Below the pieces are notes generated by a model that saw nothing but the letters and a program-made list of their open reading frames with translations, searched no databases and had not been told where the DNA came from. DNA of 64,000 nucleotides, taken from assembly GCA_965222605.1 (NCBI GenBank), contig OZ244960.1, forward strand, positions 960,001-1,024,000, given 5' to 3'. The translations under genes were made by a program, and so were the position numbers. This document shows, piece by piece, positions 2,718 through 19,237 of this stretch. Positions within the stretch are counted from its first letter, which is position 1; each line of letters opens with the position of its first letter. Source of the stretch: Candidatus Latescibacterota bacterium (GTDB lineage: Bacteria; Latescibacterota; UBA2968).

Positions 2718-3858
2718 ACAAACCGAACTCACCAGACTCGATTTGGCCTGCTGGGGCGGGTTTATGATGTTTGCCACCAGCGGTGTTGTCACCCCAATAT
2801 GCCTGCCCGAAATATCCAGAACCCTGTCCATCTCCCTCTCTGAAAGCGGCGGTCTGGAAACCGCGCGAACATGTCTTTTGCTCGTCGTCTTAATCCTGTC
2901 CGGCATCCTCGCACGCAAATGGGGCAAAAAACATTTTGTCACCTGGGGGCAATATCTCCTCGCCATCGGCCTTCTCATGATCAGCTATGCCGACAGCTAC
3001 CCCATGCTCATCCTATCCCTCATGGTCACTGGCATTGGCGGTGGATTCACCGAAGCCCTCATCAATCCCCTGATCATGGACATTCATCCCAAAGACTCGG
3101 GCAAATACCTCAACATCACCAACGCCTTTTATCCCATCGGCGTCATGATCTCCGCACTCCTCTTTGGTGAACTTCTGACCCTCGGATATTCCTGGCGGCT
3201 CGTATTCCGCATTGCCGCAGCGGGCGCGCTTTTCATGGGCATCTTATTCCACCTATCGCGTTTTCCCAGACCCATAGCAGATCAGCAATCATCCAAACAC
3301 CTGATTGTACAAATTCTCAAAACGCCCAAATTCTGGCTCTTTGCCATCGCCATATTCTTGGGCGCAGGTGTCGAAGCGGCATTCATATTCTGGAGCCGCA
3401 GTTATGTGGAAATCTACCTGCAAGACATGCCCCGCGCCGGCGCAATCGCAGTCGTCGTCTTTGCGACCACAATGGCACTGGGCCGCTTGCTTTCCGCAAA
3501 ATTGTCTCAGATGATCCGCCTGAAAACCCTGATGCTCGGTTCCGCCATCCTCGGTGTCATCGTCAGTAGCGGCATTCCCTTCTCCGAAAACCTGATCGGA
3601 TTTTATATCCTGCTCCTTTTCGCCGGATTTGCAACCGCCTGCTTTTGGCCCACCATACTCGCCGAAGCCACAGAACACCTGTCCTTTGACACCACCATGC
3701 TCTTTGTCGTACTCGCCTGTTTTGGCATTGCCGGATTTGGCCTCATCCCCTGGATCATGGGCGTCATCGGAGACAGCGCTGGCCTAAAAGCGGGCTTCGC
3801 AGTCATCCCCGGTCTCTTTATCGGTCTGATCGTTGTTCTCGCCATCACAAGGCGTTAA
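2710..3858 (+). CDS. MFS transporter
   Basis: About 12 hydrophobic segments and MFS motif A-like SGILARKWGKK. Overlaps the sulfatase stop, consistent with an operon. Confidence 0.85.
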   Translation: MSKQTELTRLDLACWGGFMMFATSGVVTPICLPEISRTLSISLSESGGLETARTCLLLVVLILSGILARKWGKKHFVTWGQYLLAIGLLMISYADSYPMLILSLMVTGIGGGFTEALINPLIMDIHPKDSGKYLNITNAFYPIGVMISALLFGELLTLGYSWRLVFRIAAAGALFMGILFHLSRFPRPIADQQSSKHLIVQILKTPKFWLFAIAIFLGAGVEAAFIFWSRSYVEIYLQDMPRAGAIAVVVFATTMALGRLLSAKLSQMIRLKTLMLGSAILGVIVSSGIPFSENLIGFYILLLFAGFATACFWPTILAEATEHLSFDTTMLFVVLACFGIAGFGLIPWIMGVIGDSAGLKAGFAVIPGLFIGLIVVLAITRR

Positions 3859-5382
3859 TCATTCTGGCGGCCAAACTGTTTGTTTGGTATATGCCTCTTT
3901 CAAATCGCGCCAATACCGCCTGCCCTTGTGAACCAGATTTGTCGGCGCAAACCGCTTGTTTAAACCTCTTTCGTGACTCGACCGCCCCGTATCAGTTCGA
4001 TATTGCAACGTGAACCGCATCAATTGTGCGAGCAAATCAAAACGCACATCTGCATACGCTGGATCGGCCCAAACATTTGCGATCTCACCCGGATCATTGC
4101 GGTGATCGTACAACTCTCCCTCATCCAGGCTCCCGTAAAACACCAGCCGAAAATCTCGCGTGCGAATCGCCGACACTTTACCCCCGGGGTTGCCCCAATC
4201 CCACTCGCAAAACGCCGCGTCTTTGCCATCTGCCTTGCCATTCACAACGGGAACCAAATCGCGCCCATCGCGCCCATCGGGAATGGGAATATCGCAGAGC
4301 CGACACAGTGTGGGATACCAATCGACCGATTCGACAATCGCATCACATGTCGCGCCTGAGGGTCCACCCGGATAACGCAATACAAAAGGAATGCGGTGAA
4401 TCGAATCGTAAATCCCAAAATTCTTGTGAAACAACCCGTGATCACCTGCAAAATCCCCGTGATCCGCGCAATACAACACCACGGTATTCTCCAACTCCCC
4501 CACCTCATCCAAATAATCCAGCACCCGACCAATCTCGGAATCAATCGCCGTAATCAGCGCGTAATAACTCGCCAAACAACGCTTCAAGCGATCGGGATTT
4601 GGATCGGCCAGTGGATACCCACACCCATCGGCCAAACGCTTTTGCATAAACTCGGGCTTGCCGGCAAAACGACGCTCAAAATAATCAACCGCACTATTGG
4701 GCAACACCATCTCATCGGGATCGTACATATCAAAATGCTCTGCCGCAGGTGCGATCGGTGCGTGTGGTCTTTGAAAACTCATGTGGAGAAAAAACGGTCG
4801 ATCATCGTCCCGCTCCTTCAAAAACGCCAGCGATTCATTGCCCGTATAATGCTCAATTGAATGTCGATATGGCAATTTGGCCGGCGCACTGCCATCCATC
4901 GTATATTCCTGCCCAGGTCTGGCCGAGCCTTCTTCGTAAAAATCCGATAACCCCAGATCTTCCAGATACTTGAAATAGTGCGTCTCGGTTGGATCCAAAT
5001 GCGTCGCATCGCACAAATCCGTATATCGGATGCGCTCAAAACCATCTTCATCCCAGCGCCGAACCATGTGCGCCTTGCCAATCACAGCCGTCTGATACCC
5101 GTGTCTCCGAAACTGACACGCCAGCGTGTTGGAATTCGCTTCGGGAATCTCCGAATGATCATTGCCGAACATCCGATGCGTGTGGCAATACTGCCCGGTC
5201 ATAAAACAAATCCGCGACGGCGAACAAATCGGATTATTGCAAAAAGCTCGTGTAAACACCACCCCCTCATCCGCAATGCGGTCCATATTTGGGGTCTCGA
5301 CATTTGGATGCGCGGCAAATCCCGCGCAATTGGCATTGTGCTGATCCGACATCAGCCACAACACATTGGGTCTTCGCGCCAT
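3859..5382 (-). CDS. Sulfatase
   Basis: RPNVLWLMSDQH, CSPSR, GKAH and ADHGD motifs. RBS AGGAG upstream. Confidence 0.9.
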   Translation of the reverse strand: MARRPNVLWLMSDQHNANCAGFAAHPNVETPNMDRIADEGVVFTRAFCNNPICSPSRICFMTGQYCHTHRMFGNDHSEIPEANSNTLACQFRRHGYQTAVIGKAHMVRRWDEDGFERIRYTDLCDATHLDPTETHYFKYLEDLGLSDFYEEGSARPGQEYTMDGSAPAKLPYRHSIEHYTGNESLAFLKERDDDRPFFLHMSFQRPHAPIAPAAEHFDMYDPDEMVLPNSAVDYFERRFAGKPEFMQKRLADGCGYPLADPNPDRLKRCLASYYALITAIDSEIGRVLDYLDEVGELENTVVLYCADHGDFAGDHGLFHKNFGIYDSIHRIPFVLRYPGGPSGATCDAIVESVDWYPTLCRLCDIPIPDGRDGRDLVPVVNGKADGKDAAFCEWDWGNPGGKVSAIRTRDFRLVFYGSLDEGELYDHRNDPGEIANVWADPAYADVRFDLLAQLMRFTLQYRTDTGRSSHERGLNKRFAPTNLVHKGRRYWRDLKEAYTKQTVWPPE

Positions 5383-5485
5383 AAATTTCTCCTTTCAAAG
5401 TGTATGTGTTTGCAGACTGTGAGATAAAGCATTAAATTGTCTCTGTTTGATGAAAATGAATCGATCTTTTGCAGAGGAAAACACC

Positions 5486-6835
5486 ATGTTTTTTGACAAC
5501 ATCGCGCTCGGCGTACCCAAAATTTTGCTCCCAAACCCCGAAATCGACTGTAGCAAATGGGCAGTCATAGCCTGTGACCAGTATGTACACGACATATCGT
5601 ATTGGGAAGAAGTCAAAAGCCTCGTGGGAGACACGCCCTCAACCCTGGACCTCATCTATCCCGAAGTCTATCTCTACGACGATGAACACGAAGAACGCAT
5701 TGCCCGCGTTCACAACAACATGAAACGCTTTGTCACCGATGGCATCTTCCGAGACGAAATCGAAGGCTTTTTGCTCGTCAATCGCATCCTCCCCTCGGGA
5801 AAATCGCGCAAAGGACTCGTCGTCACCCTCGATCTCGAGCATTACGACAGCCGCAGCCAGTCCAAAACCCTCATCCGCACAACCGAAGGGACCTATCCCA
5901 AAAATCTCGAAGCGCGTTTCGAAGTTCGGGGCAATGCCTCCCTCGAATCGCCGCATATTTTAGTACTCATCGACGATCCCAAAAAAGAAATTATCGAACC
6001 TCTCTTTGAAGAAGACTATCCAAACATCGTCGATTTTGACCTCATGATGAATGGAGGACAACTTAAATATTATTTAATCGAGAATAAAAAAGACATTGCG
6101 TGCATTGCCCAAAAACTCGCCAAACGCATTGAACCCGATTACATCCATCAAAAGTACGGTGTCAAAAACGAAATACTCCTCTACGCCATGGGCGATGGCA
6201 ACCACTCATTTGCCGCCGCACAAAAAGCATGGAAAAAAATTAAATCAACACTCAATGACAGACAACGCACAACGCGACACCCAGCCAGACATGCCATGGT
6301 CGAATTGATCAACCTGCACGACGACGCGATAGATATAGAGCCAATCCACAGGCTGATCACCCGCGTTGATCCACACACCGCATGCAACACCCTCGTCGCA
6401 TTGCTCAATACATCAGGCACCCACGCGCATCTGGAAAAAGTCTCATCACCCGACGTACAACATCAGCGCACCAAAGCCCTATCATCGGCATCCACCCATT
6501 GCCTTCCCTATCGCGCCGCGGGAAACCTCGGCATACTCGTAATTGAAAACCCATCTCAAAGAACCATACCCGAAACAATGGAAGCCGCGCTCGACCTGTT
6601 CACGCGAGAAGACACCGAAGCCGAAGTCGGATTCATCCACGGCGAAGACGTGATTGACGACCTGGGTAACAAACCCGACGCACTCGGTTTTTACATGCCT
6701 CCCATTTCAAAAAACAGCGTATTCGAGTCCATTGTTCGCTACGGCGCGTATCCTCGCAAATCCATATCTATTGGACACGCCGACGAAAAGCGTTACTATA
6801 TGGAATGCCGAAGCCTTATCCGCACTAAACGATAA
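5486..6835 (+). CDS. DUF1015 family protein
   Basis: KWAVIACDQY, MGDGNHS and KRYYMECR motifs recalled for DUF1015. ATG 5486 follows GAGGA. Confidence 0.8.
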   Translation: MFFDNIALGVPKILLPNPEIDCSKWAVIACDQYVHDISYWEEVKSLVGDTPSTLDLIYPEVYLYDDEHEERIARVHNNMKRFVTDGIFRDEIEGFLLVNRILPSGKSRKGLVVTLDLEHYDSRSQSKTLIRTTEGTYPKNLEARFEVRGNASLESPHILVLIDDPKKEIIEPLFEEDYPNIVDFDLMMNGGQLKYYLIENKKDIACIAQKLAKRIEPDYIHQKYGVKNEILLYAMGDGNHSFAAAQKAWKKIKSTLNDRQRTTRHPARHAMVELINLHDDAIDIEPIHRLITRVDPHTACNTLVALLNTSGTHAHLEKVSSPDVQHQRTKALSSASTHCLPYRAAGNLGILVIENPSQRTIPETMEAALDLFTREDTEAEVGFIHGEDVIDDLGNKPDALGFYMPPISKNSVFESIVRYGAYPRKSISIGHADEKRYYMECRSLIRTKR

Positions 6836-6875: not shown

Positions 6876-8117
6876 ATGACTGAGATATACGACATGGTCA
6901 TTGTTGGCGCGGGTCCAGCGGGCGCGACAGCAGCGTTATATGCCCATCGCGCGGGACTCAATGTCTGTTTGATAGATAAGGCGCGATTTCCGCGGGATAA
7001 AATCTGCGGCGACGCGCTATCGGGCAAAGTCGTATCGATTTTGCACGAACTCGATTTGTTCGATCAGGTCGCGCGATTGCCGGGTGCGACCATTCGAGAA
7101 GTCGTATTTGGCAGTCCGAATCACGTGGATGCGCGTGTGGATTTGCGACGGTATGACCACCGGGATGGAGCCACGGGCAAAATACTGCCAATGGAAGGAT
7201 TTGTGATCCGGCGCGAAGTACTGGATAATTTTCTCTTCCAAGAAGCGAAAAAAGTTGCGAACACCTGTTATGAGGGATTTGCCGTTAAAGACCTGATGCG
7301 AGAAAACGAGCAAATTGTAGGTGTGCGCGGCGTGGTAGATGGCCGAGAACGAGAAATACAGGCCCGCGTCGTGCTCGGTTGCGATGGTTTCAATTCAATG
7401 GTCGCGCGCAAAGCGGGATTGTACACCCATGAATCTGTGCATTGGGTCGTAGCGATTCGGTGTTATTACGAAAATGTGGCGGAATTGGGGAATCAAATCG
7501 AGTTGCATTTTGTAGATGAAGTCTTGCCGGGTTATTTCTGGATTTTTCCACTGGAAAATGGGACGGCAAATGTGGGCATTGGCATGCGTCACGACGTATT
7601 GAAAAAGCGGCGTGTGGATTTGAAAGTAGCGTTAAATGAAGTAATCAACCGCTCGCCTTACGCCTATCGGTTCAAAGATGCGCGTCCAACAGAAGAACCG
7701 GTGGGATGGAATCTGCCCGTGGGAAGCACCCGCCGGAAAAGTTATGGGAATGGCGTATTGCTTTTGGGCGATGCCGCGGGATTGATCGACCCCTTCACGG
7801 GCGAGGGAATTGGCAATGCGTTATATTCCGCGCGTTTTGCCGTGGATATGGTGCAGGAAGCCATTGCGGCAGATGATTATTCAGCGGCTTTTTTTAAGCG
7901 ATACGAAGACCGATTATGGGATGCAATAGGCGATGAATTGGCGACGAGCACGCGAATGCAAAAATTGGGGCATTGGCGTCCCCTCCTCAATTTTACAATT
8001 CAAAAAGCCGCACACAACGACAAAGTCCGCGATCTAATCTGCGGCATGATGGCCAATGCCGTCCCCAAAAAACAACTTACCAATCCCCTGTTTTATTTAA
8101 AGCTATTGTTCAGTTGA
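6876..8117 (+). CDS. Geranylgeranyl reductase family FAD oxidoreductase
   Basis: GAGPAG, FPRDKICGD, GYFWIFP and GDAAGLIDPFTGEGI motifs. Confidence 0.9.
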   Translation: MTEIYDMVIVGAGPAGATAALYAHRAGLNVCLIDKARFPRDKICGDALSGKVVSILHELDLFDQVARLPGATIREVVFGSPNHVDARVDLRRYDHRDGATGKILPMEGFVIRREVLDNFLFQEAKKVANTCYEGFAVKDLMRENEQIVGVRGVVDGREREIQARVVLGCDGFNSMVARKAGLYTHESVHWVVAIRCYYENVAELGNQIELHFVDEVLPGYFWIFPLENGTANVGIGMRHDVLKKRRVDLKVALNEVINRSPYAYRFKDARPTEEPVGWNLPVGSTRRKSYGNGVLLLGDAAGLIDPFTGEGIGNALYSARFAVDMVQEAIAADDYSAAFFKRYEDRLWDAIGDELATSTRMQKLGHWRPLLNFTIQKAAHNDKVRDLICGMMANAVPKKQLTNPLFYLKLLFS

Positions 8118-8182
8118 ACCATTTGTATTCTCATTGGTCTTTCAAATAAGTCTATTTATTAACTTAAACCAAAAGGTTTGGT

Positions 8183-8215
8183 TGTCATTGCGGCATGGTT
8201 TTAGCCGCAATCCAG
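8183..8215. repeat. REP-like palindrome (GTCATTGCGGC...GCCGCAATCCAG)
   Basis: Inverted repeat ATTGCGGC/GCCGCAAT in intergenic DNA at the left edge of the island. Confidence 0.4.
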
Positions 8216-8296
8216 TCTCCAGCAAGCCCGGCTGGGAAATAAGAACAACAAATGTTAGCTAATTTTTTTGAAATCCCACTCATACCCTAAAAGATC

Positions 8297-9808
8297 ATGA
8301 AACGAATTTTAATATGCTGGATAGGCAACACAGACTTGCAAGCCTCTGAAGGACAAGATGTAGGTGTGGGGCCTATCGCCCAGGCACTGGACACACGCGA
8401 ATTTGATGAAGTCTTTTTTATCACAGATTATAAAGAAGCTCGCGTAAAGCCTTACACCAACTGGATACGAGAAAGAACCCCAACGCCACACCAACTATTT
8501 TATCGACAACTTTCAAGCCCCACCCACTTTGGAGAAATTTACGAGATTGCCGCAAGCATCTGCCAAGAAGCTCTGGACCAATATGGCAATCAAACAGAAC
8601 TGACTTTTCACCTCAGCCCCGGCACGCCAGCAATGGCCGCGGTATGGATCATTCTGGCGAAAACGCGCTTTCCCGCTGAATTGATCGAGTCCTCAAGGGC
8701 GCATGGCGTTCAAACCGCCTCTGTTCCCTTCGATATTTCTGCAGAATTTTTACCTACCCTCCTGCAAAAACCCGATGCAGAACTCCGCTCATTGAGCGAA
8801 GAAAAACCCACTGAATCAGCAAATTTTGAAAACATAATATACAGGAGCCAGGCCATAGCGCGCGTGGTCGAAAAAGCGCGGCGTGCTGCCGTGCGAGATA
8901 TTCCCGTCTTATTTGAAGGTGAGTCCGGCACGGGAAAAGAACTCTTTGCACGCGCCATTCACCAACGCAGCCTGCGAAAGGGGGAATTTATTCCCGTAAA
9001 TTGCGGCGCGATTCATCCCAACCTTGTAGAATCTGAACTGTTTGGGCACAAAAAAGGTGCATTCTCAAATGCCCATGCTGATCGCAAAGGCCACTTTGAA
9101 GAGGCAAATGGCGGTACCATCTTTTTGGATGAAATTGGCGAATTGTCCAAAGATATACAGGTGAAATTATTGCGCGTCTTACAGGAAGGAGAGGTCGTGC
9201 GACTCGGTGAATCCAAACCCAGAAAAGTAGATGTACGCATTGTTGCGGCAACAAATCGAAATCTCATCGAGGAAGTTAGTGAAGGACGGTTCCGCGAAGA
9301 CCTGTTCTATCGGCTTGCAGTGGCCTATCTCAAATTGCCCCCATTGCGCGAACGAGAGGGAGATATGGGTTTGTTGATTAACCATTCGCTCGAACTGATC
9401 AACCGGGAAAATGAAATGCAACCCGGCTACAAACATAAAAAAATTTCCATCGGCGCAAGAAATCTTATTCTGAATCACCATTGGCCTGGCAATATACGCG
9501 AGTTGCAAAACACGCTCAGACGCGCGATGGTGTGGACAGACGAAGAAACCCTTACGCGACAAGACATTGAAGAAGCCCTCTTACCCGCGTTTGGGAAACG
9601 AGACGAAGATATCCTGAATCGCCCCTTTGACGCAGATTTTAGCCTGCCCGATCTGATTGATGAAGTTGCAAAACACTATATTTCTCGCGCACTGAAAGAA
9701 TCCAAAACAAAAACAGAAGCCGCAGAACTCGTGGGCTTACCCAGTTACCAGACCCTCACCAACTGGGCAAAAAAGCACGGTGTAGAAATTGATCTAAACA
9801 GAAAATAG
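8297..9808 (+). CDS. Sigma54-dependent enhancer-binding protein with N-terminal CARF-like (RtcR-related) domain and C-terminal HTH
   Basis: Walker A GESGTGKE, SELFGHKKGAFSNA, TIFLDEIGEL, FREDLFYRL and WPGNIREL motifs. N-terminal ILICWIGNTD...FHLSPGTPAM resembles CARF motifs. C-terminal KTEAAELVGL HTH. Confidence 0.85.
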   Translation: MKRILICWIGNTDLQASEGQDVGVGPIAQALDTREFDEVFFITDYKEARVKPYTNWIRERTPTPHQLFYRQLSSPTHFGEIYEIAASICQEALDQYGNQTELTFHLSPGTPAMAAVWIILAKTRFPAELIESSRAHGVQTASVPFDISAEFLPTLLQKPDAELRSLSEEKPTESANFENIIYRSQAIARVVEKARRAAVRDIPVLFEGESGTGKELFARAIHQRSLRKGEFIPVNCGAIHPNLVESELFGHKKGAFSNAHADRKGHFEEANGGTIFLDEIGELSKDIQVKLLRVLQEGEVVRLGESKPRKVDVRIVAATNRNLIEEVSEGRFREDLFYRLAVAYLKLPPLREREGDMGLLINHSLELINRENEMQPGYKHKKISIGARNLILNHHWPGNIRELQNTLRRAMVWTDEETLTRQDIEEALLPAFGKRDEDILNRPFDADFSLPDLIDEVAKHYISRALKESKTKTEAAELVGLPSYQTLTNWAKKHGVEIDLNRK

Positions 9809-9845
9809 AAAAAATTTAAAAAAAATATCAAATTTTAGAGTACAT

Positions 9846-9861
9846 TGGCACGAAATATGCT
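9846..9861 (+). promoter_or_regulatory. Sigma54 -24/-12 promoter (copy 1)
   Basis: TGGCACGAAATATGCT has GG-N10-GC spacing and lies about 40 bp after the regulator stop. Confidence 0.8.
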
Positions 9862-10049
9862 TAAACAATGAGCGTGACAACAACGTGGACTCCCGCCACC
9901 TGAAGAAATTTCTTGACAAAGCTGCTGTATTAGTAAAAAAATTAGTATCCTGACCCATTCCAAATCGGAGCGCGTTGGATATTCCAAAAGTTTGTCAACC
10001 TCAAGTGTTTCAGACAAACCTGAACGTTTTTTTCAAATTGTGAGAAATT

Positions 10050-12155
10050 ATGGCCAATTTAGATATTAAAAACCTGGTGAAGGAACTGTTTCCTAGCAGC
10101 GTGAAGGACCCGGGGTATCAAAGGTATTTGGAAGGCTTCATTGAAGAAGGATTAAAAACTGAAAATTCTTATAAATTTCAACATCTTACATCTATTGTCA
10201 TTGAAAATTTCAAGTGCATCGGCGATGCCGTAACTATTCCCATTCGTCCCATCACATTGTTATTTGGAAAAAATAGTTCGGGTAAATCAACAGTGTTACA
10301 GGCACTACGTTATGGCTACGAAATGTGGCAAGGTAAATTAGCCAGCCATATATCAATGAGCGGTGGCTTTAATATTGACTTTAGTGATTTTCCTTCCCTG
10401 GTACATGGCCATGATCTGGACAAAAAAATTCGAATTCGTTTCGAATATACCTTTGATTTCGATACCCAATATCCTACTTATGAATTTAGCGAAGTGGTAA
10501 CAGGTTGGAAAGATGGACAAGGCAATATCGTGTCATGGTTATGGGGAATGAGCAAGAATAATGAGGAACTGATTCGTTGTTCCTTTGATAGCTTAGAAGC
10601 CCACACACCTGATACGATATTTGGCTCAAATGGTGAGGAATTGATCTGTTTGAAAGAAAAAAAAGGGTTCCCAAAGCTTTCTCCAGAAATATATGTGAAT
10701 ACTAATAATATTCATAAGGATTCTATAGATTTCCAGTTAAATATAATTAGGTATAAATTGCTGCATCAGCAAGAACTTACAGAATCCTCTAGCGATATTC
10801 AACATTTGGGCCCATTCCGTGAAGTGCCCCAAACGCTTGATAACTCATGGGAAAAAGGAATTGGAGCCTGGAATACTCTCGCGCGTGATCCGGAATTGCT
10901 AAAAGAAACAAATCGCTATATGAGAGATATTTTGAAACTTGGATACACCATCAGTGATATCACACTTGATAGTCAAGAAAAGTCAAATATCACGCTTGAT
11001 ATGAATAGTGAAATCATGGAAAAGTTAAAAAAAATTTGCAATTCTGAAGACATAAAAGTTGATGAATTAAAAAAACAGGTTTATGATCCTCTTGTGCTAT
11101 TATCTCGCCAACCTGTGATTAAACTTCATGACGAAAACGAGAATATAGAAGTTGGTCTCTCAGATATTGGTGTTGGTATCGCCCAAATTATTCCCGTTGT
11201 GGTGGGGACATTAGACGATAGCCACGGAATTTTTTTAGTTGAACAGCCAGAGCTTCACATTCATCCTGCTGTTCAAGTGGCTTTGGGCGATGTATTCATT
11301 GACAGTATAAAAACTAAGCAACTGTTTTTAGATGATTCTCAATTCATACAAGAATGGGCTCATTCTTTTCTAGCCGGAGACGAGACCTATAAGAAATTTC
11401 GCTCCAAGTTTATCTCCAAGCTAGAAAACAGTCCGGACTTCCTTGAAAAGAAAAAAAATATCAATAACCCTGCTTCTTTTTATAACATTTCCTCTAAGAT
11501 TGGCGGCCTCATAATAGACAGCATAAAAATTGGGCAAGAGTGTTTTGATTTTTCTCTATCTTTGCAAGAGGCTTCAGATAAATTTCTCTCCAAAATGGAA
11601 AATAGCTTTGATTTTTCTCTATCTTTGCAAGAGGATTCAGATAAACTTCTCTCCAAGATAGAAAACAGCAAGGAAGACCTACTTGATATTAAAGGACGGA
11701 CATTTAGAAAGGAAGATCTACTTGAAAGCGTCAAAAATATCAATGATCCTGCCAATGATCCTGCTTTTTATTCTAAGATTATTGACCTCATAAAAGACAG
11801 TCATCAGGATATTCTAATAATTGCCGAAGGGTTAAACAAAAAAGTGAGAGAATTAGGCAAAAAGCATAGAAAAGATCTCTTAAGCATGGGTAAAAATAGT
11901 AATCGCACTCTACTCATTGAAACGCATTCAGAGCACCTGTTACTGAGGATTATGAGGCGGATGCGTGAGACGTTTGAAGACAGGATTGTAGAAAATCACT
12001 TCCCCGTAACCCCCGATGATATCGCAGTGCTATTCGTCGAAAGGCATGATTCGCAAACAATCATACGGGAAATGCCTGTTAATGAACGTGGAGAATTGGT
12101 AAAAGCCTGGCCGGGCGGTTTCTTTGAGGAAGATATAGAAGAGGTATTTGCTTAA
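10050..12155 (+). CDS. ABC-type ATPase (AAA_15/AAA_21, C-terminal DUF3696-like), module 1
   Basis: IENFKC, Walker A GKNSSGKS, DIGVGIAQIIP, VEQPELHIHP, IETHSEH and terminal WPGGFFE motifs. Confidence 0.85.
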   Translation: MANLDIKNLVKELFPSSVKDPGYQRYLEGFIEEGLKTENSYKFQHLTSIVIENFKCIGDAVTIPIRPITLLFGKNSSGKSTVLQALRYGYEMWQGKLASHISMSGGFNIDFSDFPSLVHGHDLDKKIRIRFEYTFDFDTQYPTYEFSEVVTGWKDGQGNIVSWLWGMSKNNEELIRCSFDSLEAHTPDTIFGSNGEELICLKEKKGFPKLSPEIYVNTNNIHKDSIDFQLNIIRYKLLHQQELTESSSDIQHLGPFREVPQTLDNSWEKGIGAWNTLARDPELLKETNRYMRDILKLGYTISDITLDSQEKSNITLDMNSEIMEKLKKICNSEDIKVDELKKQVYDPLVLLSRQPVIKLHDENENIEVGLSDIGVGIAQIIPVVVGTLDDSHGIFLVEQPELHIHPAVQVALGDVFIDSIKTKQLFLDDSQFIQEWAHSFLAGDETYKKFRSKFISKLENSPDFLEKKKNINNPASFYNISSKIGGLIIDSIKIGQECFDFSLSLQEASDKFLSKMENSFDFSLSLQEDSDKLLSKIENSKEDLLDIKGRTFRKEDLLESVKNINDPANDPAFYSKIIDLIKDSHQDILIIAEGLNKKVRELGKKHRKDLLSMGKNSNRTLLIETHSEHLLLRIMRRMRETFEDRIVENHFPVTPDDIAVLFVERHDSQTIIREMPVNERGELVKAWPGGFFEEDIEEVFA

Positions 12156-12270
12156 TGGCTTTATTTTCTGAGTATGCTGTAACACCTGATGTATTTAATG
12201 AGAGTTGTTATGATTCGCCAGCATTATGTGACGTATATTTTAGACAATTGCTGGAAGTTTTTTTTACTGA

Positions 12271-13196
12271 GAAGCTGTTTTAAAACTATTGTGAGTGAAG
12301 AAAAGGGTTGAAAAAGCGTATTCATCTGTCCAAATTTAGGTTAGCAAATCACCCTAAAAAGAAAGGACAAAGATGAATACGCAAAGGCAATATCCGACAA
12401 ATGTCACCCAAGCGCAATGGCAACTGCTGATCCCCTTGCTGCCCAAACGCAAATGGCGAAAAGGAGGTCCCGGACGCCCTCCTGCCAATTTGCGCCAAGT
12501 GTTCAATGGCATCCTGTATCTGACGAAGACCGGCAGCCAATGGCGCATGCTACCCCATACCTTCGGCTGCTGGCAGACCGTGTATGGCTATTTCAATAAA
12601 TGGCGCAAGCAAGGCATCTTTGAGCAGGTGCAACAGGCACTCACGCGGCGAGAAAGAAAACGGCAGGGACGTAAGCCTACCGCATCAGCAGGCTGCATTG
12701 ACAGCCAAAGTGTCAAGACAGCAACACAAGGAAAATCAAAAGGTTATGATGCTGGCAAAAAGGTCAATGGACGCAAACGCCATCTTCTCGTTGATACCCT
12801 CGGACTCGTCATCAGCACCTATGTCTCGCCTGCTGATCTCCAAGACCGTGATGGCTTAAAGAAGGTGCTCAATCAGTATTTTGACACGGGAGAGACACGC
12901 TTACGCAAGCTATGGGTTGATGGCGGCTATCGAGGTGAAGACCTCAAGAAATGGGTCGCTGCTAAGAAGCAGACGCATAAGATTGATCTTGAGGTTGTCA
13001 CCCCAAAAGGCAAAGGCTTTCAACTCGTCAAACGCCGGTGGGTCGTCGAGCGCACCTTTGCTTGGTTATTTAATTTTCGCCGACTATCAAAGGATTATGA
13101 AGACTTGACCGACAGTAGTGAAGCCTTTATTTACATCGTTATGATTTACCTCTTAATCAACAGACTCGCTTAAGCGAGGGGTTTTAAAACAGCTTC
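12271..13196 (+). mobile_element. IS5-family insertion sequence, 926 bp
   Basis: Perfect 16-bp TIRs GAAGCTGTTTTAAAAC (12271-12286) and GTTTTAAAACAGCTTC (13181-13196). TGA target duplication at 12268-12270 and 13197-13199. Confidence 0.95.
12373..13173 (+). CDS. IS5-family DDE transposase
   Basis: YPTNVTQAQW, IDSQSVK, GYDAGKKVNGRKRH, WVDGGY and RWVVERTFAW motifs. Confidence 0.95.
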   Translation: MNTQRQYPTNVTQAQWQLLIPLLPKRKWRKGGPGRPPANLRQVFNGILYLTKTGSQWRMLPHTFGCWQTVYGYFNKWRKQGIFEQVQQALTRRERKRQGRKPTASAGCIDSQSVKTATQGKSKGYDAGKKVNGRKRHLLVDTLGLVISTYVSPADLQDRDGLKKVLNQYFDTGETRLRKLWVDGGYRGEDLKKWVAAKKQTHKIDLEVVTPKGKGFQLVKRRWVVERTFAWLFNFRRLSKDYEDLTDSSEAFIYIVMIYLLINRLA

Positions 13197-14063
13197 TGAG
13201 GGTCTCGTTCGAAATCTTCGCAATGGCGAATGGCAAGCGTTCTTTTCAACCCATGCAAGACCCTGGCACTCCCGTATAAAGCATATTTTGAAAAATTTGG
13301 CTGACGCAGGTCGTTTAGTACCAAGTGATCCAGCATTAAGTCATACACCTCAGACTGATCATGAATGGTGCAACGAGGCACTGGCTTCGCATGACACCTC
13401 ACCTTTGAATGGCATTATAGTAAGTGATGCCATTCGAAGTACCTATCGCAGAAATCAGTTGGTTGAAAGTGTAAATAGACTATCTCAATCTACCTGCGCG
13501 TGGTGGGAACCCACAAATAGCTCGCTTCGGTTAAAGCGCACTATCTGTCAGTATAAAAAAGCTCTTAAGCTGATTCTTAGGCATGCAAAATCCATTATGT
13601 TTATAGACCCCTATATTTATCCAGCACAAAGCAACTATGCTGATTTTGTACAATTGATTAAAGCAGCGAGTAATAGACCGCCACAATCACCACGACCAAT
13701 TGTTGAGATACATAGCAAAATTCGTAACATCTCTGGAAAAAATAGGGAAGATACTCGTCAGATTATGGAAAATACTTTTCGAAACGGGTTTGGCCCAGTT
13801 CTTTCGCAGTCAAACTTAAAAGCAGAAGTTTTTATATGGGACGATTTTCACGATCGTTATCTGATTAGCAATTTAGGCGGAATACTGGTGCCCCATGGAT
13901 TCGACACATCAACCAGTTCTAACCTGACAACATGGTCACGGCTTGGACGGTTAGATCGAGATGATGTACAGCGCGAATTTGCTCGCGAGAGTAATAAACA
14001 CAAACTGCAGTTTAATTTTACGATACCGTGAAATTGGGATTTATCGTGAAACCGGTTTACTAC

Positions 14064-14095
14064 ACGGTGAGTGTCGAGAGATACTCACCGTTTTT
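14064..14095 (+). terminator. Intrinsic terminator after module 1
   Basis: ACGGTGAGTGTC-GAGA-GATACTCACCGT stem with a GNRA loop, followed by a T-run. Confidence 0.7.
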
Positions 14096-14350
14096 GTTTG
14101 TGTATGAGAGCCAAAATATGGAGGCTTCAGAAATAACGGTCCCACGGCTGTCAGATCAATCCGGAGAGAACGGCCATTCAAAAGAATAAAAAAATTTACT
14201 CTAATACAAGAAATTTTACTCACAATGCCATCCTATCCTGATTAGCAAAGTTGCCAGACACGACTTTTATCGCATTCACGGCACGGAAATTGGCACGAAA
14301 TAAACAAAAAATGAAAAATTTTTATCAAAAGATCAAATTTTAGATCGAAT

Positions 14351-14366
14351 TGGCACGAAATATGCT
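14351..14366 (+). promoter_or_regulatory. Sigma54 -24/-12 promoter (copy 2)
   Basis: TGGCACGAAATATGCT. The 21 bp at 14349-14369 are identical to 9844-9864. Confidence 0.8.
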
Positions 14367-14493
14367 TAAGTAATTGGCACGACTACAGTGGAGATGTTCG
14401 GAAGTGGATCAAGACCGATGCCCACAGGTAGAAACGTCAAATTATCAGCAGAAATTTGTGTGTTCTGATGGACACAACGCAGGGAGTATTGTA

Positions 14494-14805
14494 ATGAGTA
14501 TTTTTCCGAGAGGGCGACCCAGCCGACAGGCACCGCCCAATAGACCTGGGATATACCGGTTTATATGCAAGCTGACTGGAAGAGTTGATTATATCGGCGA
14601 AGCTGTAAATATAGCACGCAGGATAATTGAGCATCTTCAATCAACCAAACCCGTATCGCGTGATACCCACTATGTCGAATGGCAGGCGGCAGATGGCAGA
14701 AGCACATCAAGAACCCGCCGAGAATATGAGCGAACTAAAATTAACAAACACAAACCACGACTGAACAAGAGAGGCGGGGGTGGAGGCCGAAGGGCCAGAC
14801 GATGA
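14494..14805 (+). CDS. Small GIY-YIG nuclease family protein
   Basis: PGIYRF...DYIGEA..IARRIIEH...E...PRLN motifs. ATG 14494 follows AGGGAG. Confidence 0.75.
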   Translation: MSIFPRGRPSRQAPPNRPGIYRFICKLTGRVDYIGEAVNIARRIIEHLQSTKPVSRDTHYVEWQAADGRSTSRTRREYERTKINKHKPRLNKRGGGGGRRARR

Positions 14806-14872
14806 TTTGCAGCACTACTGGTGCCCCGGCGCTTTAAAATATAAAAGGAGCACCGAGAGGAGGTGATGTTCT

Positions 14873-14959
14873 ATGGGTACGCTGATAAAATTGTGTTTGC
14901 CATACCTCATTCCGTTAGCTATAGATGTGATCGGAAACTGGTCGCGCATCAAGCGGTAG
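14873..14959 (+). CDS. Putative 28-aa hydrophobic/amphipathic peptide (type I toxin-like)
   Basis: Perfect SD AGGAGGT (14858-14864) 8 nt before the ATG. Translation MGTLIKLCLPYLIPLAIDVIGNWSRIKR. Flanked by hairpins. Confidence 0.5.
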   Translation: MGTLIKLCLPYLIPLAIDVIGNWSRIKR

Positions 14960-14978
14960 AAGGGGCGATGGCAGTGTC

Positions 14979-15004
14979 AGAGACGGGGAATCTTCCCCGT
15001 CTCT
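14979..15004. terminator. Strong hairpin, probable terminator
   Basis: AGAGACGGGGAA-TC-TTCCCCGTCTCT perfect 12-bp inverted repeat. Confidence 0.6.
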
Positions 15005-15136
15005 TGAAAAAATTCCTTGACAACTCGGCGTGTTGTTTGAAGAATTGAGTGGTATGTTGACCTGTTCTACAGAAACCAATTCATTATCAAACTCAAGGGT
15101 CCGTATTTGAACTCTTTTATCAAATGGTAAGAAATC

Positions 15137-16516
15137 ATGGATATTCCCAATACTGAAATCATTAAGATATTATCTCAACAAGGTCGTGGCCGTATTACAT
15201 CTATCACCATTGAAAACTTCAAGTGCATTGGCGATGCCGTGACCATTCCCATTCGCCCTATCACCTTGTTATTTGGCAAAAACAGCGCGGGCAAATCAAC
15301 AGTGTTGCATGCACTGCGCTATTGGTTCGAAATTTGGAATGAGACTTGGTATAAATTGACCGAGCAAAACACTCCCGAGCGGAGTGCTATAGAAATGAGT
15401 GGAGGCTATACTATTGACCTTACAAATTTCCCTTCCCTGGTACATCGCCATAATTTGGATCGGAAAATTCGCATTCGCATCACCTATGCTCCCAATGTCA
15501 CAGATAAGCAAAATCAAAGTTATCATCTTCTATGGAATGAAGTAGTAACGAGTTGGAAAGAAGAAGACACCCATGTCGAGTCAGTTTTATTGGGATGTGT
15601 CATAAATGGCGAAGAAATGTGTTTCATCATTTCAGGGGAACCGTCCAACGATGCGGTGGTTAATCCGAATGGCAGGGTATTGATTCCTAAAAAGCTGGAT
15701 GCATCCGGTCAGTCTTCTGGCATGGCTTTAGCCATCGGTACAGCTTTCGGCGCAGCTTTTCCGATACTCGGCATAATAGCAGGTTTTGAAGGGTTGAGTA
15801 GTCGGCAAAAACCTCAAACGCCGGATGCTATTCAACATTTGGGGCCATTCCGAGAATTGCCTCCTCCCCATTATGACAAACTCCAAACGTCCGATGAATT
15901 GCAAAATAAATTGCGGCGATGGGAAAAGGGATTAGGAGCTTGGGATACCCTCGCACGAGACCCCAAAGTGATCAAAAAAACAAACCACTATATGCAAGAT
16001 GTTTTGAAACTTGGATACAGCATTAATCATTGGAAACGCAATTCCACTAATCTTGAGCAGTGGCCTTGCCTTCATGATGAAAACAATGATATAGATGTTC
16101 ATCCTTCAGATGTTGGTGTTGGTATTGCCCAGATCATTCCAGTTGTAGTGGGTGCGTTAGACGACGACCAGAACTCTATAATTTTTGCGGTTGAACAACC
16201 AGAACTCCATGTTCACCCTGCCGTTCAAGTGGCTTTGGGCGATGTGTTTATTGACGGCATAAAAAATGGCAATCGCACTATGCTCATCGAAACACATTCT
16301 GAGCACTTGCTGTTGCGATTGCTGCGACGTGTGCGTGAGACAACAGAAGGAGAACAAACAGATTACAAATTGACACCCGACGATCTATCTGTGGTCTATG
16401 TCCGACCAACGCCAGCAAGAGTTAAGTTCACCGCAATCAGTGTAACGGATGACGGCGACTTCAATGTACCTTGGCCGGAAGGCTTCTTCGACGAGCGAGT
16501 GAAGGAGCTTTTCTAA
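15137..16516 (+). CDS. ABC-type ATPase (AAA_15/AAA_21, DUF3696-like), module 2, paralog of 10050-12155
   Basis: Near-identical IENFKCIGDAVTIPIRPITLLFGKNS.GKS. Also VEQPELHVHP, IETHSEH and WPEGFFDE. Confidence 0.85.
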   Translation: MDIPNTEIIKILSQQGRGRITSITIENFKCIGDAVTIPIRPITLLFGKNSAGKSTVLHALRYWFEIWNETWYKLTEQNTPERSAIEMSGGYTIDLTNFPSLVHRHNLDRKIRIRITYAPNVTDKQNQSYHLLWNEVVTSWKEEDTHVESVLLGCVINGEEMCFIISGEPSNDAVVNPNGRVLIPKKLDASGQSSGMALAIGTAFGAAFPILGIIAGFEGLSSRQKPQTPDAIQHLGPFRELPPPHYDKLQTSDELQNKLRRWEKGLGAWDTLARDPKVIKKTNHYMQDVLKLGYSINHWKRNSTNLEQWPCLHDENNDIDVHPSDVGVGIAQIIPVVVGALDDDQNSIIFAVEQPELHVHPAVQVALGDVFIDGIKNGNRTMLIETHSEHLLLRLLRRVRETTEGEQTDYKLTPDDLSVVYVRPTPARVKFTAISVTDDGDFNVPWPEGFFDERVKELF

Positions 16517-16518
16517 GG

Positions 16519-17514
16519 ATGATCTGTGAATATGCATTGGAACCAGAACTTGTCGCAACTTGGCACGACCGTGAACGCTTCCGTTATTTTAGCGAACGAT
16601 TCGGCTTTGACTATGATGGCCGCGCAACAGGCCGTGTGATGGCTCAATATCCCAGTAATTGGAAAAAACGGGTTTGGGACGCATTTGCTACAGACTCTGG
16701 ACAACCACCTGCTGAATCCTTTGCTAAGCGAAGACGGGTCGAAATTTTGCTGGAACAGTTGGGGAGAATTCATGTCCGCCGCTCCGGCAGCGTGTGGAAC
16801 GATCAATACACTTGGCTGGAAAATGCTGAAGAAGAGAATAAGCGTCGTCCATTTCATGCGATCTTGGCATACGACAACCCCCACAACAACTCTCGGGTCA
16901 TGCTTGAGGACGATGTGCTGAAGATACCTCCACCTCCAAATTGGCTCGCGCCTCTTGAAACTCCGGTACTTAGAACTGCGACTTCGATGGCAACCCGCCT
17001 CGAGCCAATGCTGCGCTGTGCAACGCGCATCCTTTTCATTGACCCACATTTTAGTGCGTCGGAACTGAGATTCCGAAATCCTTTGGAAGAGTTCCTAAAA
17101 ATCATTTGTGACGGTAGCCGTAAGGTCACACTCGAATACCACACCATGCACAACGATCAAAAACCGGCTTGGAACCTTTTTTTAAGAAATTGCCAAACAA
17201 AGCTCCCGCGTCTCATTCCCCGTGGTTTCACACTCACAGTCCGCCGTTGGGAAGAACGAGATGTTGGAGAGGAACTTCATGACCGCTATATCCTCACCAA
17301 CATCGGTGGCGTAGCGATTCCTAGAGGTCTCGACGAAAAAGAAGGTCTCGACGAAAGAGACCGAGGTACTATTGATATCTTACGTTTAAGCTTCGAAACT
17401 TGGCAGCAACGGTTAGAAGAGTACGGTTACTACAATTCTGAACCTATTTTTGATCCAGAGAGATCCGCTTTCGATATGGAAGGAGAGGTATGTATTGCGG
17501 GCACGAAGGTATAG
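16519..17514 (+). CDS. Partner of ATPase 2, PLD-like/MIT_C-type HDR protein (intact)
   Basis: ATG 2 nt after the ATPase stop. N-terminus MICEYALEPELV is homologous to the module 1 partner. Contains ILFIDPHF and LHDRYILTNIGG. Confidence 0.75.
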   Translation: MICEYALEPELVATWHDRERFRYFSERFGFDYDGRATGRVMAQYPSNWKKRVWDAFATDSGQPPAESFAKRRRVEILLEQLGRIHVRRSGSVWNDQYTWLENAEEENKRRPFHAILAYDNPHNNSRVMLEDDVLKIPPPPNWLAPLETPVLRTATSMATRLEPMLRCATRILFIDPHFSASELRFRNPLEEFLKIICDGSRKVTLEYHTMHNDQKPAWNLFLRNCQTKLPRLIPRGFTLTVRRWEERDVGEELHDRYILTNIGGVAIPRGLDEKEGLDERDRGTIDILRLSFETWQQRLEEYGYYNSEPIFDPERSAFDMEGEVCIAGTKV

Positions 17515-17716: not shown

Positions 17717-19237
17717 CTACGCCTGTGCTGTGGTTCCAAACGCCTTTTGCAAATACCCCAGATCGAGTTCGGGATAAACCGGGAACCGCGCGAGGAGATT
17801 GGCGATTCTCTGTTGGGCGTATTCGAGCACACCGTCCTGGACTCTGTATTGGATCTTGCTAAATTGGCCCGCGCTTCTGCCCTTCGTGAACTTCAGTGGC
17901 CGTGCCTGGGTGAGCACATTGCCCATGACCGCGCCGATCTCCTGCATCTCTTCTGCCCCCATACCAAGAGTCGTAAGCGCCGGTGTCCCCACCCTGAGAC
18001 CACTGGTGTACCATGGCCCATTGGGATCAAAGGGAATGGTATTTTTATTCAGCGTAATCCCGGCATCGCGAAGCAGGGTCTCGGCCTGACGACCCGTGAG
18101 ATTAAAAGGCGTAACATCAATCTGAAGCAAGTGATTGTCAGTCCCCCCTGTAAGAACCGTAAGCCCCGCGTCTATACACGCCTGTGCGAGCACCTGGGCA
18201 TTATCGACAATTCTGGCGGCATACGCTTGAAACTCGGACGTACTCGCCTCCTGAAAAGCGATAGCTTTGGCTGCCATCACATGGGGCAAAGGACCGCCGA
18301 GCACCATCGGACAACCCTTATCGACCTGTTCGGCAAATTCTTCCGCACACAAAACCATGCCGCCTCTGGGACCGCGCATGGTTTTGTGTGTGGTCGTCGT
18401 AACGACATGGGCATGGGCAACCGGATCAAAGTCACCCGTAAAAACCTTGCCGGCAACCAATCCAGCAAAATGCGCCATATCGACCATAAAAACAGCCCCC
18501 ACTTCATCGGCGATATCCCGGAAAATGCGGAAATTAATTTTCCGAGGATAAGCACTATAACCCGCTAAAAGAATCAAAGGTTTGACAGCTCTGGCCTGGT
18601 CGCGGATTTCATCGTAGTCAATCAGGCCAGATTTTTTATTCACCGTGTACGCATGCGCCTCAAACATGCGCCCAGACACATTGATGCGATAGCCATGCGT
18701 GAGATGTCCCCCGGATGAGAGATCCAGCCCCAGGAGCTTTTGATTGCCCAATTGTGTGCGAAGCGCGTCCCATGCTTTGGCCGAAAGATCAAAGGGCGAT
18801 TTTTGTCCCATTTTTTTGAGCGCGACATCTTGAACGCGCCCCGAGAGAATCGCCCAAAAAGCGACCATATTGGCATCTGCACCCGAGTGGGGTTGCACAT
18901 AAGCGTGATCTGCACCAAAGAGATCGCACGCCAGTTTTGAGGCCAGGCTTTCAATCGCATCTACATTATCACAACCCGCGTAAAAGCGGTGACCGGGAAT
19001 ACCCTCGGCGTATTTGTCGGTAAGCAGATTGCCCATAGCCAGTTGCGTGGGCAAAGAACAATAATTCTCGCTCGCAATCATCTTGAGATTCGAACGCTGG
19101 TCAGCCAATTCGCGCACAATATTTTTCGCCACATCGGGCGATACGGAAGCCACCTGTTCCAGCGAGGCCAAATAGGCGACAAATCCGGGATTTGGGGTGG
19201 GATTTTGAGACAGATAGTTGGCAAGAGGACTGGACAT
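17717..19237 (-). CDS. glyA: Serine hydroxymethyltransferase
   Basis: MIASEN, KYAEG, VQPHSGA, GGHLTHG and [14 protein letters not shown] (PLP lysine). Confidence 0.97.

Follow-up and report, generated by a model that had tools for sequence, protein, structure and literature searches.

A 64,000-nucleotide stretch of the genome of a Candidatus Latescibacterota bacterium (contig OZ244960.1, positions 960,001 to 1,024,000; referred to here as the window) carries two copies of a two-gene module in which the gene for an ABC ATPase is followed directly by that for a partner protein, and it raises the question of what such pairs do and what switches them on. We propose, with a probability of roughly 60%, that the locus is a Menshen-like array of cassettes, each pairing an ATPase with a phospholipase D (PLD)-like protein and lacking the Menshen component NsnA, that is induced through an RtcR-like CARF/sigma-54 switch and in which one cassette was recently killed by an insertion sequence (IS). 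The modules resemble two of the three parts of Menshen, the ATPase being NsnB-like and the partner NsnC-like; the nuclease activity of the partner, the inducing signal and the binding of the ATPase to its partner are elements that we infer. The source genome is a single 6.34-Mb contig of 98.7% completeness, and the features of the locus are collected in Table 1.

The ATPase-partner modules and their relation to Menshen

The original prediction for this locus, made from the sequence alone, described a duplicated module with direct coupling of its two genes, and this duplication proved to be real: the ATG of partner 1 (at 12155) overlaps the stop codon of ATPase 1 in a TAATG, and a gap of 2 nt separates the stop codon of ATPase 2 from the start of partner 2 at 16519. 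Both ATPases are matched by AAA_15/AAA_21 of Pfam (AAA_15 in ATPase 1, 4.6e-19) and by the NsnB profile of PADLOC (2.7e-36 for ATPase 1; 9.3e-42 for ATPase 2, over 2-339 of 345 profile positions). Their proposed assignment as DUF3696-type ATPases holds by Pfam for ATPase 1 (25.7 bits, cut-off 22) and narrowly fails for ATPase 2 (21.4 bits), both being NsnB-like by PADLOC. The top PADLOC match of both is component A of PDC-M55 (PDC-M55A; 8e-43 for ATPase 1 and 7e-44 for ATPase 2), neither partner is matched by any PDC-M55 model, and our literature search found no paper describing PDC-M55. Residues G47, K53, S54, Q354-P-E356 and H387 of ATPase 2, which belong to its Walker A, Walker B and H-loop motifs, are invariant among 31 sequences, and its AlphaFold2 (AF2) model (pLDDT 75.8, pTM 0.82) matches GajA (1.3e-10) and an OLD nuclease (6.5e-10) in Foldseek, as well as PtuA and Rad50 heads.

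An alignment of the two ATPases over 405 residues gives 46% identity, and only motif blocks, the P-loop stretch among them, come close to being identical (86-143 nt long, 79-84% identical as DNA), so the earlier description of the ATPase cores as near-identical was overstated. ATPase 1 carries an insert of ∼190 residues between Walker B and the H-loop (11313-11890, residues ∼422-614) that is not present in ATPase 2 or in the orthologue at the related locus L020, and that holds a 63-nt tandem duplication (11544-11669, 92% identical); a second repeat pair lies inside the same insert (11442-11473 and 11721-11752). Compared with the L020 orthologue, the last 87 residues of ATPase 1 are 93% identical and the P-loop is nearly identical, whereas the middles are unalignable. 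ATPase 1 is a mosaic relative to that orthologue, and the ATPase has a hypervariable middle between conserved ends, which fits the conserved and fast-evolving parts postulated earlier. Prediction of a 1:1 complex of ATPase 2 and partner 2, both supplied as alignments, gave a score of 0.01 against a mark of 0.32, which speaks neither for nor against binding; the published stoichiometry of the NsnB-NsnC complex is NsnB4-NsnC2.

Both partners contain the motifs from which their relatedness was first proposed, EYAVTP/EYALEP near the N terminus, IMFIDPY/ILFIDPH in the center and HDRYLISNLGG..PHGFD/HDRYILTNIGG..PRGLD toward the C terminus, and they are otherwise as divergent as had been stated, with 23% identity over 127 residues between the C-terminal piece of partner 1 and partner 2 (BLASTP, E 3e-8). 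The predicted length of ∼315-330 residues applies to partner 2, which is continuous at 331 residues, whereas partner 1 is split by a 926-bp IS. Partner 2 has no match in Pfam or NCBIfam and none in PADLOC at E up to 0.1, and none of its 417 homologues from a word-indexed search is annotated; with E values up to 0.001, a profile search collected 2,994 proteins, each of which represents a cluster at 50% identity. ESM Atlas returned only clusters of "hypothetical protein," in one of which 13% of members carry MIT_C, and comparing the partner profile with the sequences of all PDB chains gave only a chance match (E 2.7). Among 30 family members, weak PADLOC matches were seen to BrxL in 8 (best 5e-6) and to NsnC in 7 (best 0.008).

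The AF2 model of partner 2, built from a 30-row alignment, has a pLDDT of 87.9 and a pTM of 0.85, and Foldseek places the MIT_C domain of MITD1 first (E 1.5e-5), followed by the PLD enzymes Streptomyces PLD (5.7e-5) and Nuc (1.7e-3). Independently of Foldseek, VIA comparison of residues 145-326 agrees, with Z scores of 10.2 for SauUSI, 10.1 for MITD1, 8.6 for both Nuc and NucT and 8.1 for BfiI; the fold is common to MITD1 MIT_C and the single-HKD PLD nucleases, Zucchini included, over a range of Z 7.7-10.2, and Tdp1 is also among the fold matches (Z 6.0-6.6). For residues 1-140 the VIA scores are middling (many PIN/VapC rows, Z 5.5-7.3) and consistently of the PIN family. The partner is accordingly modeled as two domains, a predicted PIN-like N-domain (residues ∼1-140) and a predicted PLD/MIT_C-like C-domain (∼145-326), and for the latter the suggestion of a PLD/MIT_C-like fold is borne out.

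Across 30 partner sequences of ∼21-70% identity, the invariant residues are D175 (of FIDP), E206, H208, H254, R256 and G263-G264. In the model of partner 2, D175 follows the strand formed by residues 170-174 and H254-D-R256 precedes that of residues 257-260, an arrangement that would match the PB-PLD1 signature discussed below, with strands of the model numbered by comparison with the published scheme. The family motif is H254-[N/D]-R256-x4-[D/N], with arginine for lysine in 30/30 sequences and asparagine at the aspartate position in both window proteins. Conservation within the family peaks in I-x-E-Y-A-L-E-P-E at the N terminus, along with N-A-E-x-E of the PIN-like domain. Just past HDRY..GG, partner 2 contains an 18-nt tandem duplication (17325-17360, GLDEKE/GLDERD), which falls in a loop of variable length across the family.

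According to the main text of the Menshen study (Li et al., NAR 2025, PMC12065111), NsnB combines an ABC ATPase with a DUF3696 tail, NsnC consists of an inactive-PIN N-domain and a variable effector domain, and two DUF3696 tails are predicted to clamp the NsnC N-domain. The same text describes PB-PLD1, an effector class of NsnC, as MIT_C-like with a D/E after β-2 and HDR before β-5, classes this signature as a probable nuclease effector in the NsnC effector position, and places MIT_C-like domains in many BrxL C termini. The window ATPases are likewise ABC ATPases with a DUF3696 tail (that of ATPase 2 just below the cut-off), and each is followed immediately by a partner that, like NsnC, would combine a PIN-like N-domain with an MIT_C-like PLD C-domain bearing the D and H-D-R residues, the tight order of ATPase before effector being common to both systems. 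In contrast to Menshen, the window locus has no NsnA (ParB-DUF262 plus ParBDB), and the pair follows an RtcR-like activator with sigma-54 promoter sites or, in other genomes, a Type I restriction-modification (R-M) operon. There is no open reading frame (ORF) between the regulator gene and ATPase 1 (9808-10050) and only the GIY-YIG ORF before ATPase 2; the genome has five DUF262 hits, none of them closer than ∼250 kb to the locus, in keeping with the absence of a DUF262 partner noted earlier, and DUF262 occurs in none of the upstream-neighbor families scanned in related loci, each through its representatives. Because the collection of PMC12065111 was mined from DUF262, NsnA-less pairs lie beyond it.

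A wider set of systems follows the same two-gene logic of ATPase plus effector, namely Gabija (GajA), Septu and retron PtuA-PtuB, and PARIS AriA-AriB, of which GajA and PtuA recur among the fold matches. The effectors of Gabija, Septu and PARIS are Toprim or HNH nucleases, whereas the window combines PIN-like and PLD-like domains with an ATPase bearing a DUF3696 tail. We found no paper naming an NsnA-less ATPase-PLD cassette array with an RtcR-like switch in a search of main texts, the supplements of PMC12065111 and PMC11090510 being outside that search.

A CARF-domain regulator and its candidate sigma-54 promoters

The gene preceding the first module encodes a regulator that matches the PADLOC model RtcR_PspF2--CARF_AAA_HTH at 1.1e-196 over residues 2-497 and, in Pfam, Sigma54_activat (1.4e-67) and AAA_lid_14. 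It falls below the NCBIfam RtcR equivalog NF038308, with 331 bits against a cut-off of 650 and over residues 66-478 only, and we therefore regard it as a member of a distinct subfamily of CARF-bearing enhancer-binding proteins, "RtcR_PspF2" being used here as the name of the PADLOC model only. It is the only CARF-bearing enhancer-binding protein found in the genome, the other 17 matches beginning at residue 131 or later. RtcB (PF01139) was not found in this near-complete single-contig genome, so the regulator is without an rtcBA target; rpoN is present.

Sigma-54 promoters follow a GG-N10-GC consensus of the form TGGCAC-N5-TTGC. The 15-nt element TGGCACGAAATATGC, which matches 9/10 specified bases of this consensus, occurs at P1 and P2 and nowhere else in the genome, even with up to 1 mismatch, and the two sites sit in an 81-nt direct repeat (9802-9882 and 14307-14387). 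Nine promoter regions from 7 loci share the core TTGGCACGAAA..TGC without variation. On this basis P1 and P2 are predicted to be sigma-54-dependent promoters. Given that the regulator is the only one of its kind in the genome, that RtcB was not found and that the promoter sites are unique to these two positions, the modules are its only evident targets.

The association between regulator and promoter extends to related loci. We scored GG-N10-GC sites that reached at least 9.5 of 10.5 consensus points and lay at most 650 nt upstream of the head of an array, which may be hsdR, counting only upstream zones of at least 300 nt and including the window. Strong sites were present in 22/26 zones with an RtcR-like neighbor compared with 2/34 without one, against a background expectation of ∼1 site for all zones together (63 hits in 2.35 Mb).

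The sequence upstream of P2 includes what looks like a leftover of the 3' coding end of the regulator gene (CTGATTAGCAAAGTTGCCAGACAC; 14240-14385 compared with 9655-9885), and the word ATTGGCACGA occurs three times, starting at ∼14289, 14349 and 14374. At the related locus L011, these upstream blocks also persist at the internal promoters. Judged from their sequence, these blocks and repeats may be activator binding sites that were duplicated together with the promoter.

An arrangement of this kind has a precedent in the CoCoNuT Type IV restriction systems, for which the main text of Bell et al. (eLife 2024, PMC11090510) proposes RtcR-headed defense superoperons that include Type I R-M. As in the superoperons described there, an RtcR-like CARF-AAA+-HTH gene stands at the 5' end of co-directional defense genes, often with Type I R-M between, and the signal proposed in that text is RNA with cyclic phosphate ends. 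In contrast to the CoCoNuT arrangement as presented there, the terminal effector here is the ATPase-PLD pair and not McrBC/HEPN, and conserved -24/-12 promoters are located. The earlier description of the modules as a stand-alone system does not fit the window locus, because an RtcR-like CARF/sigma-54 activator and two predicted sigma-54 promoters serve them. This switch escaped the original prediction, as did the IS inactivation of module 1 and the PIN-like N-domain that the partner appears to have in common with NsnC.

Layout, linkage and turnover of the locus

The modules lie in an island with a GC content of 0.36-0.48, compared with 0.50-0.57 in the flanks. Partner 2 is followed by a convergent gene (17717-19237) whose product, from a reading of its translation by eye, looks like a serine hydroxymethyltransferase.

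Table 1. Features of the regulator-module locus in the window, with positions counted from the first nucleotide of the window
Feature	Coordinates	Strand	Remarks
RtcR-like CARF - sigma-54 AAA+ - HTH enhancer-binding protein, 503 aa	8297-9808	+	PADLOC, Pfam
P1, sigma-54 -24/-12 promoter-like site (TGGCACGAAATATGC)	9846-9860	+	190 nt upstream of ATPase 1
ATPase 1, NsnB-like ABC ATPase with DUF3696 tail, 701 aa	10050-12155	+	
Partner 1, N-terminal piece, 39 codons	12155-12270	+	Last codon completed across the IS
IS5-family insertion sequence, 926 bp	12271-13196	+	Transposase 12373-13173
Partner 1, C-terminal piece, 276 codons plus stop	13201-14031	+	Holds FIDPY and HDRY motifs
P2, sigma-54 -24/-12 promoter-like site	14351-14365	+	Identical to P1
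Small GIY-YIG nuclease-domain ORF, 103 aa from ATG	14494-14805	+	Between P2 and ATPase 2
ATPase 2, NsnB-like ABC ATPase, 459 aa	15137-16516	+	Walker A, Walker B and H-loop intact
Partner 2, 331 aa	16519-17514	+	Predicted PIN-like N-domain and PLD/MIT_C-like C-domain

To place the pair in a broader context we compared 80 related loci (numbered with the prefix L) from a scan of one genome per species, which covered Latescibacterota, Binatia, Desulfobacterota, Acidobacteriota, Gemmatimonadota, Myxococcota and others. In 79/80 of them an ATPase homologue ends within ∼4 nt of the conserved start of the partner, a pairing far beyond chance and in line with the original expectation that homologues would be found consistently beside these ATPases; they also lie in defense contexts, among them Type I R-M, OLD-TOPRIM, NACHT and KAP. 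The sole exception is L075, where the partner homologue is a 432-aa ORF (7515-8813) with no upstream ATPase. At L049 the homologue lies within a 502-aa ORF (212-1720) that may be a fusion with the ATPase C terminus or a frameshift.

Two genomic contexts recur. In one, an RtcR-like gene is directly upstream or divergent (a neighbor cluster present in 29 loci and the window), and any RtcR-like tblastn match is found in 35/80 loci. In the other, the pair ends an hsdR-hsdM-hsdS-ATPase-partner series, with the HsdS, HsdM and HsdR clusters in 27, 25 and 17 of the 80 loci, respectively. The two are sometimes combined, the 3' end of an RtcR-like gene lying just upstream of hsdR in at least 9 Type I R-M loci. 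Further upstream neighbors include OLD-TOPRIM, a second AAA_15 ATPase, NACHT, KAP NTPase, UvrD-PDDEXK, ThiF-JAB and Fic, and two are housekeeping (xanthine dehydrogenase and GyrB). In L026, L030 and L032 (∼1520-6040) a 1,506-aa NACHT-domain protein is encoded between hsdS and the ATPase-partner pair, and a conserved gene set (clusters c19, c11, c32, c20, c21 and c33) follows downstream.

The distribution of the partner is patchy: it was found in 29/151 sampled genomes of the phylum and, within the genus, in 9/19 other genomes, in 1-3 tandem copies, some with internal stops. At one syntenic site, between the regulator and the convergent serine hydroxymethyltransferase-like gene, which is followed by an 815-aa gene, there are three cassettes in L011, L013 and L020 and two in L002, L006 and the window, the window being without the middle cassette type of its syntenic relatives. 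In a FastTree phylogeny of the partners, those encoded in the first, second and third cassettes of Latescibacterota arrays separate onto very long branches of their own. Context labels are intermixed in it, and the RtcR label has to change at least 13 times to fit the well supported branches; the tree has long branches and many "other" loci end at contig edges, and we draw no order of events from it. Orthologues of the small GIY-YIG ORF (Pfam GIY-YIG 1.1e-5, 26.1 bits, cut-off 22.6), with 69-85% identity, lie inside or at the end of arrays in L002, L005, L006 and L011, and its product might act as an additional effector or be a selfish endonuclease.

Module 1 has been interrupted by an element of the IS5 family. 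Its transposase matches DDE_Tnp_1 (9e-31) and DUF4096 (7e-28) in Pfam and NF033580 with 242.9 bits against a cut-off of 110, its termini are 16-bp perfect inverted repeats, and it is flanked by a TGA target duplication (12268-12270 and 13197-13199). The genome carries 10 full-length copies, 4 of them 100% identical (own-genome loci L092-L099), and at 7 copies the flanking sequence agrees with a C-TNA-G target with a 3-bp duplication; the family assignment is thus sustained by the DDE transposase, the inverted repeats, the target duplication and the multiple copies. The element interrupts partner 1 after codon 39, and its removal in silico joins the two pieces in frame into a 315-aa protein with no internal stop, which shows 82-86% identity to intact orthologues (L011, L013, L020 and L002) and an ungapped junction. 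We conclude from this that the insertion is recent. With partner 1 split by this active element, module 1 is at present dead, and module 2 is intact.

In run X3 one contig passes from 12267 straight to 13197 at a depth of 46, skipping the IS, with a shorter arm of only 33 letters; we take this as a weak indication that the site is unoccupied in another population. Two other joins, from 9870 to 14419 in X3 (shorter arm 27 letters) and from 10226 to 15239 in X1 (shorter arm 28 letters, with 6 extra letters), lie where the promoter and P-loop segments are repeated and could be artifacts of assembly. Among RNA data, the contigs of one metagenomic run (X15) align to the multi-copy IS alone and leave the modules uncovered. 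The IS knock-out, the weakly supported unoccupied site and the arrays of one to three modules show rapid turnover at one site.

Proposed mechanism and competing explanations

In the mechanism that we propose, a signal would bind the CARF domain of the activator, which would then open P1 and P2, a step that is in line with the promoter motifs, their restriction to these two positions, their co-occurrence with the regulator across loci and the presence of rpoN. Each ATPase is produced along with its partner, given that their coding frames overlap or nearly abut. By analogy with GajA, PtuA and NsnB the ATPase would oligomerize, its DUF3696 tail holding the PIN-like domain of the partner as in the published NsnB-NsnC models, and its hypervariable middle would recognize a cue from the invader. 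ATP-dependent release or activation would finally allow the PLD/MIT_C-like domain to cut nucleic acid, so that the phage is restricted or the infection aborted. In a more specific version, which we regard as tentative, the CARF activator would be an alarm for infection or RNA damage, responding to cyclic-phosphate RNA ends left by first-line defenses or by phage enzymes and inducing the paralogous ATPase-PLD cassettes through dedicated sigma-54 promoters, each hypervariable ATPase insert would be tuned to a different phage cue, and the H-D-R domain would be a true nuclease.

Several observations weigh against an induced ATPase-nuclease array. The partner motif, H-x-R-x4-[D/N]-x-G-G, differs from that of canonical PLD nucleases, H-x-K-x4-D (bioRxiv 10.1101/2025.07.10.664194), in its full form H-x-K-x4-D-x6-G-S-x-N, and there is no sequence match to solved chains; in view of this non-canonical motif we treat nuclease activity of the partner as hypothetical. 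Pfam MIT_C (PF16565) is not significant for the family, with 2/30 members at E 0.25. The closest structural relative, MITD1, is described in terms of membrane binding, and the literature treats catalysis by MIT_C-type domains as no more than a hypothesis. Of the 60 counted arrays, 34 are without an RtcR-like neighbor, and the few strong sigma-54 sites among them (2/34) lead us to regard the regulator as an add-on and not as part of the core. The defense-island association is guilt by association; moreover, neighboring ORFs were called by a simple longest-ORF heuristic, and the Pfam scan was made on representatives of the neighbor clusters only.

The motif and the identity of the top structural match could also be read as signs of a non-catalytic PLD/MIT_C-like domain, in which case the partner would be a membrane or nucleic-acid adaptor and the toxic or protective activity would reside elsewhere, for example in the ATPase, in the conserved acidic PIN-like domain or in the GIY-YIG protein. 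No enzymatic activity is demonstrated for MITD1, arginine takes the place of the HKD lysine, the +7 aspartate is asparagine in both window proteins, and the most conserved stretches are acidic and lie at the N terminus and in the PIN-like domain, where a PIN-type site could be present. Against such an adaptor stand the invariance of D175, E206, H208, H254 and R256 in 30 sequences, which is typical of an active site, the classification of the signature in the main text of PMC12065111 as that of a probable nuclease effector and the presence of real PLD nucleases (SauUSI, Nuc, NucT and BfiI) among the strongest fold matches, and we consider this explanation rather unlikely. The frequency of arrays without an RtcR-like neighbor raises a different objection, that the pair is a self-contained, constitutive sensor-ATPase/nuclease to which the neighboring regulator and the sigma-54-like sites are irrelevant. 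As 32 of the 34 arrays lacking the neighbor also lack a strong site, the pair evidently functions without the regulator in many genomes, and the scatter of context labels over the partner tree, with its forced RtcR-label changes, points in the same direction. For the window locus this is nonetheless an unlikely account, given that the only two copies of the promoter 15-mer in the genome stand before the two modules, that the promoter segment was duplicated along with the module, that the sole CARF-bearing enhancer-binding protein has no rtcBA to control and that the promoter is found in the great majority of RtcR-adjacent zones (22/26) across loci.

The same regulator also allows a non-defense interpretation, in which a regulon for RNA or DNA damage would replace RtcBA: the sensor would detect damaged RNA and induce the ATPase together with a Tdp1-like end-processing phosphodiesterase. 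The RtcR-like character of the regulator and the failure to find RtcB in the genome would suit it, and the PLD superfamily does include end-processing enzymes, with the Tdp1 fold match (Z 6.0-6.6) as a case in point. However, in many loci the pair stands at the 3' end of Type I R-M operons beside other defense genes; its occurrence within the genus is patchy, with pseudogenes and an IS knock-out; the tandem, deeply divergent paralogues and the hypervariable ATPase insert point to an arms race; and the architecture equals that of NsnB-NsnC from a validated anti-phage system. We therefore judge a damage regulon to be quite improbable and prefer the induced, Menshen-like array.

If that array is what the locus encodes, a widespread unnamed gene pair would be a new Menshen-type branch that works without the DNA sensor NsnA, and in many lineages the transcription of the pair would be under the control of a CARF-domain, sigma-54-dependent activator. 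This would tie the sensing of RNA damage or oligonucleotides to the induction of defense, a connection so far proposed only bioinformatically, for CoCoNuTs, and would do so in a compact system of one regulator, a 15-nt promoter core and a two-gene effector. It also bears on whether the MIT_C-type PLD-like domains, such as those of human MITD1 and BrxL, are enzymes. Should the more specific version proposed above also hold, the locus would represent a second line of immunity, an inducible array of modules with a transcriptional sensor in the place of NsnA, and its partners would provide the first enzymatic role for the MIT_C fold common to human MITD1 and BREX BrxL.

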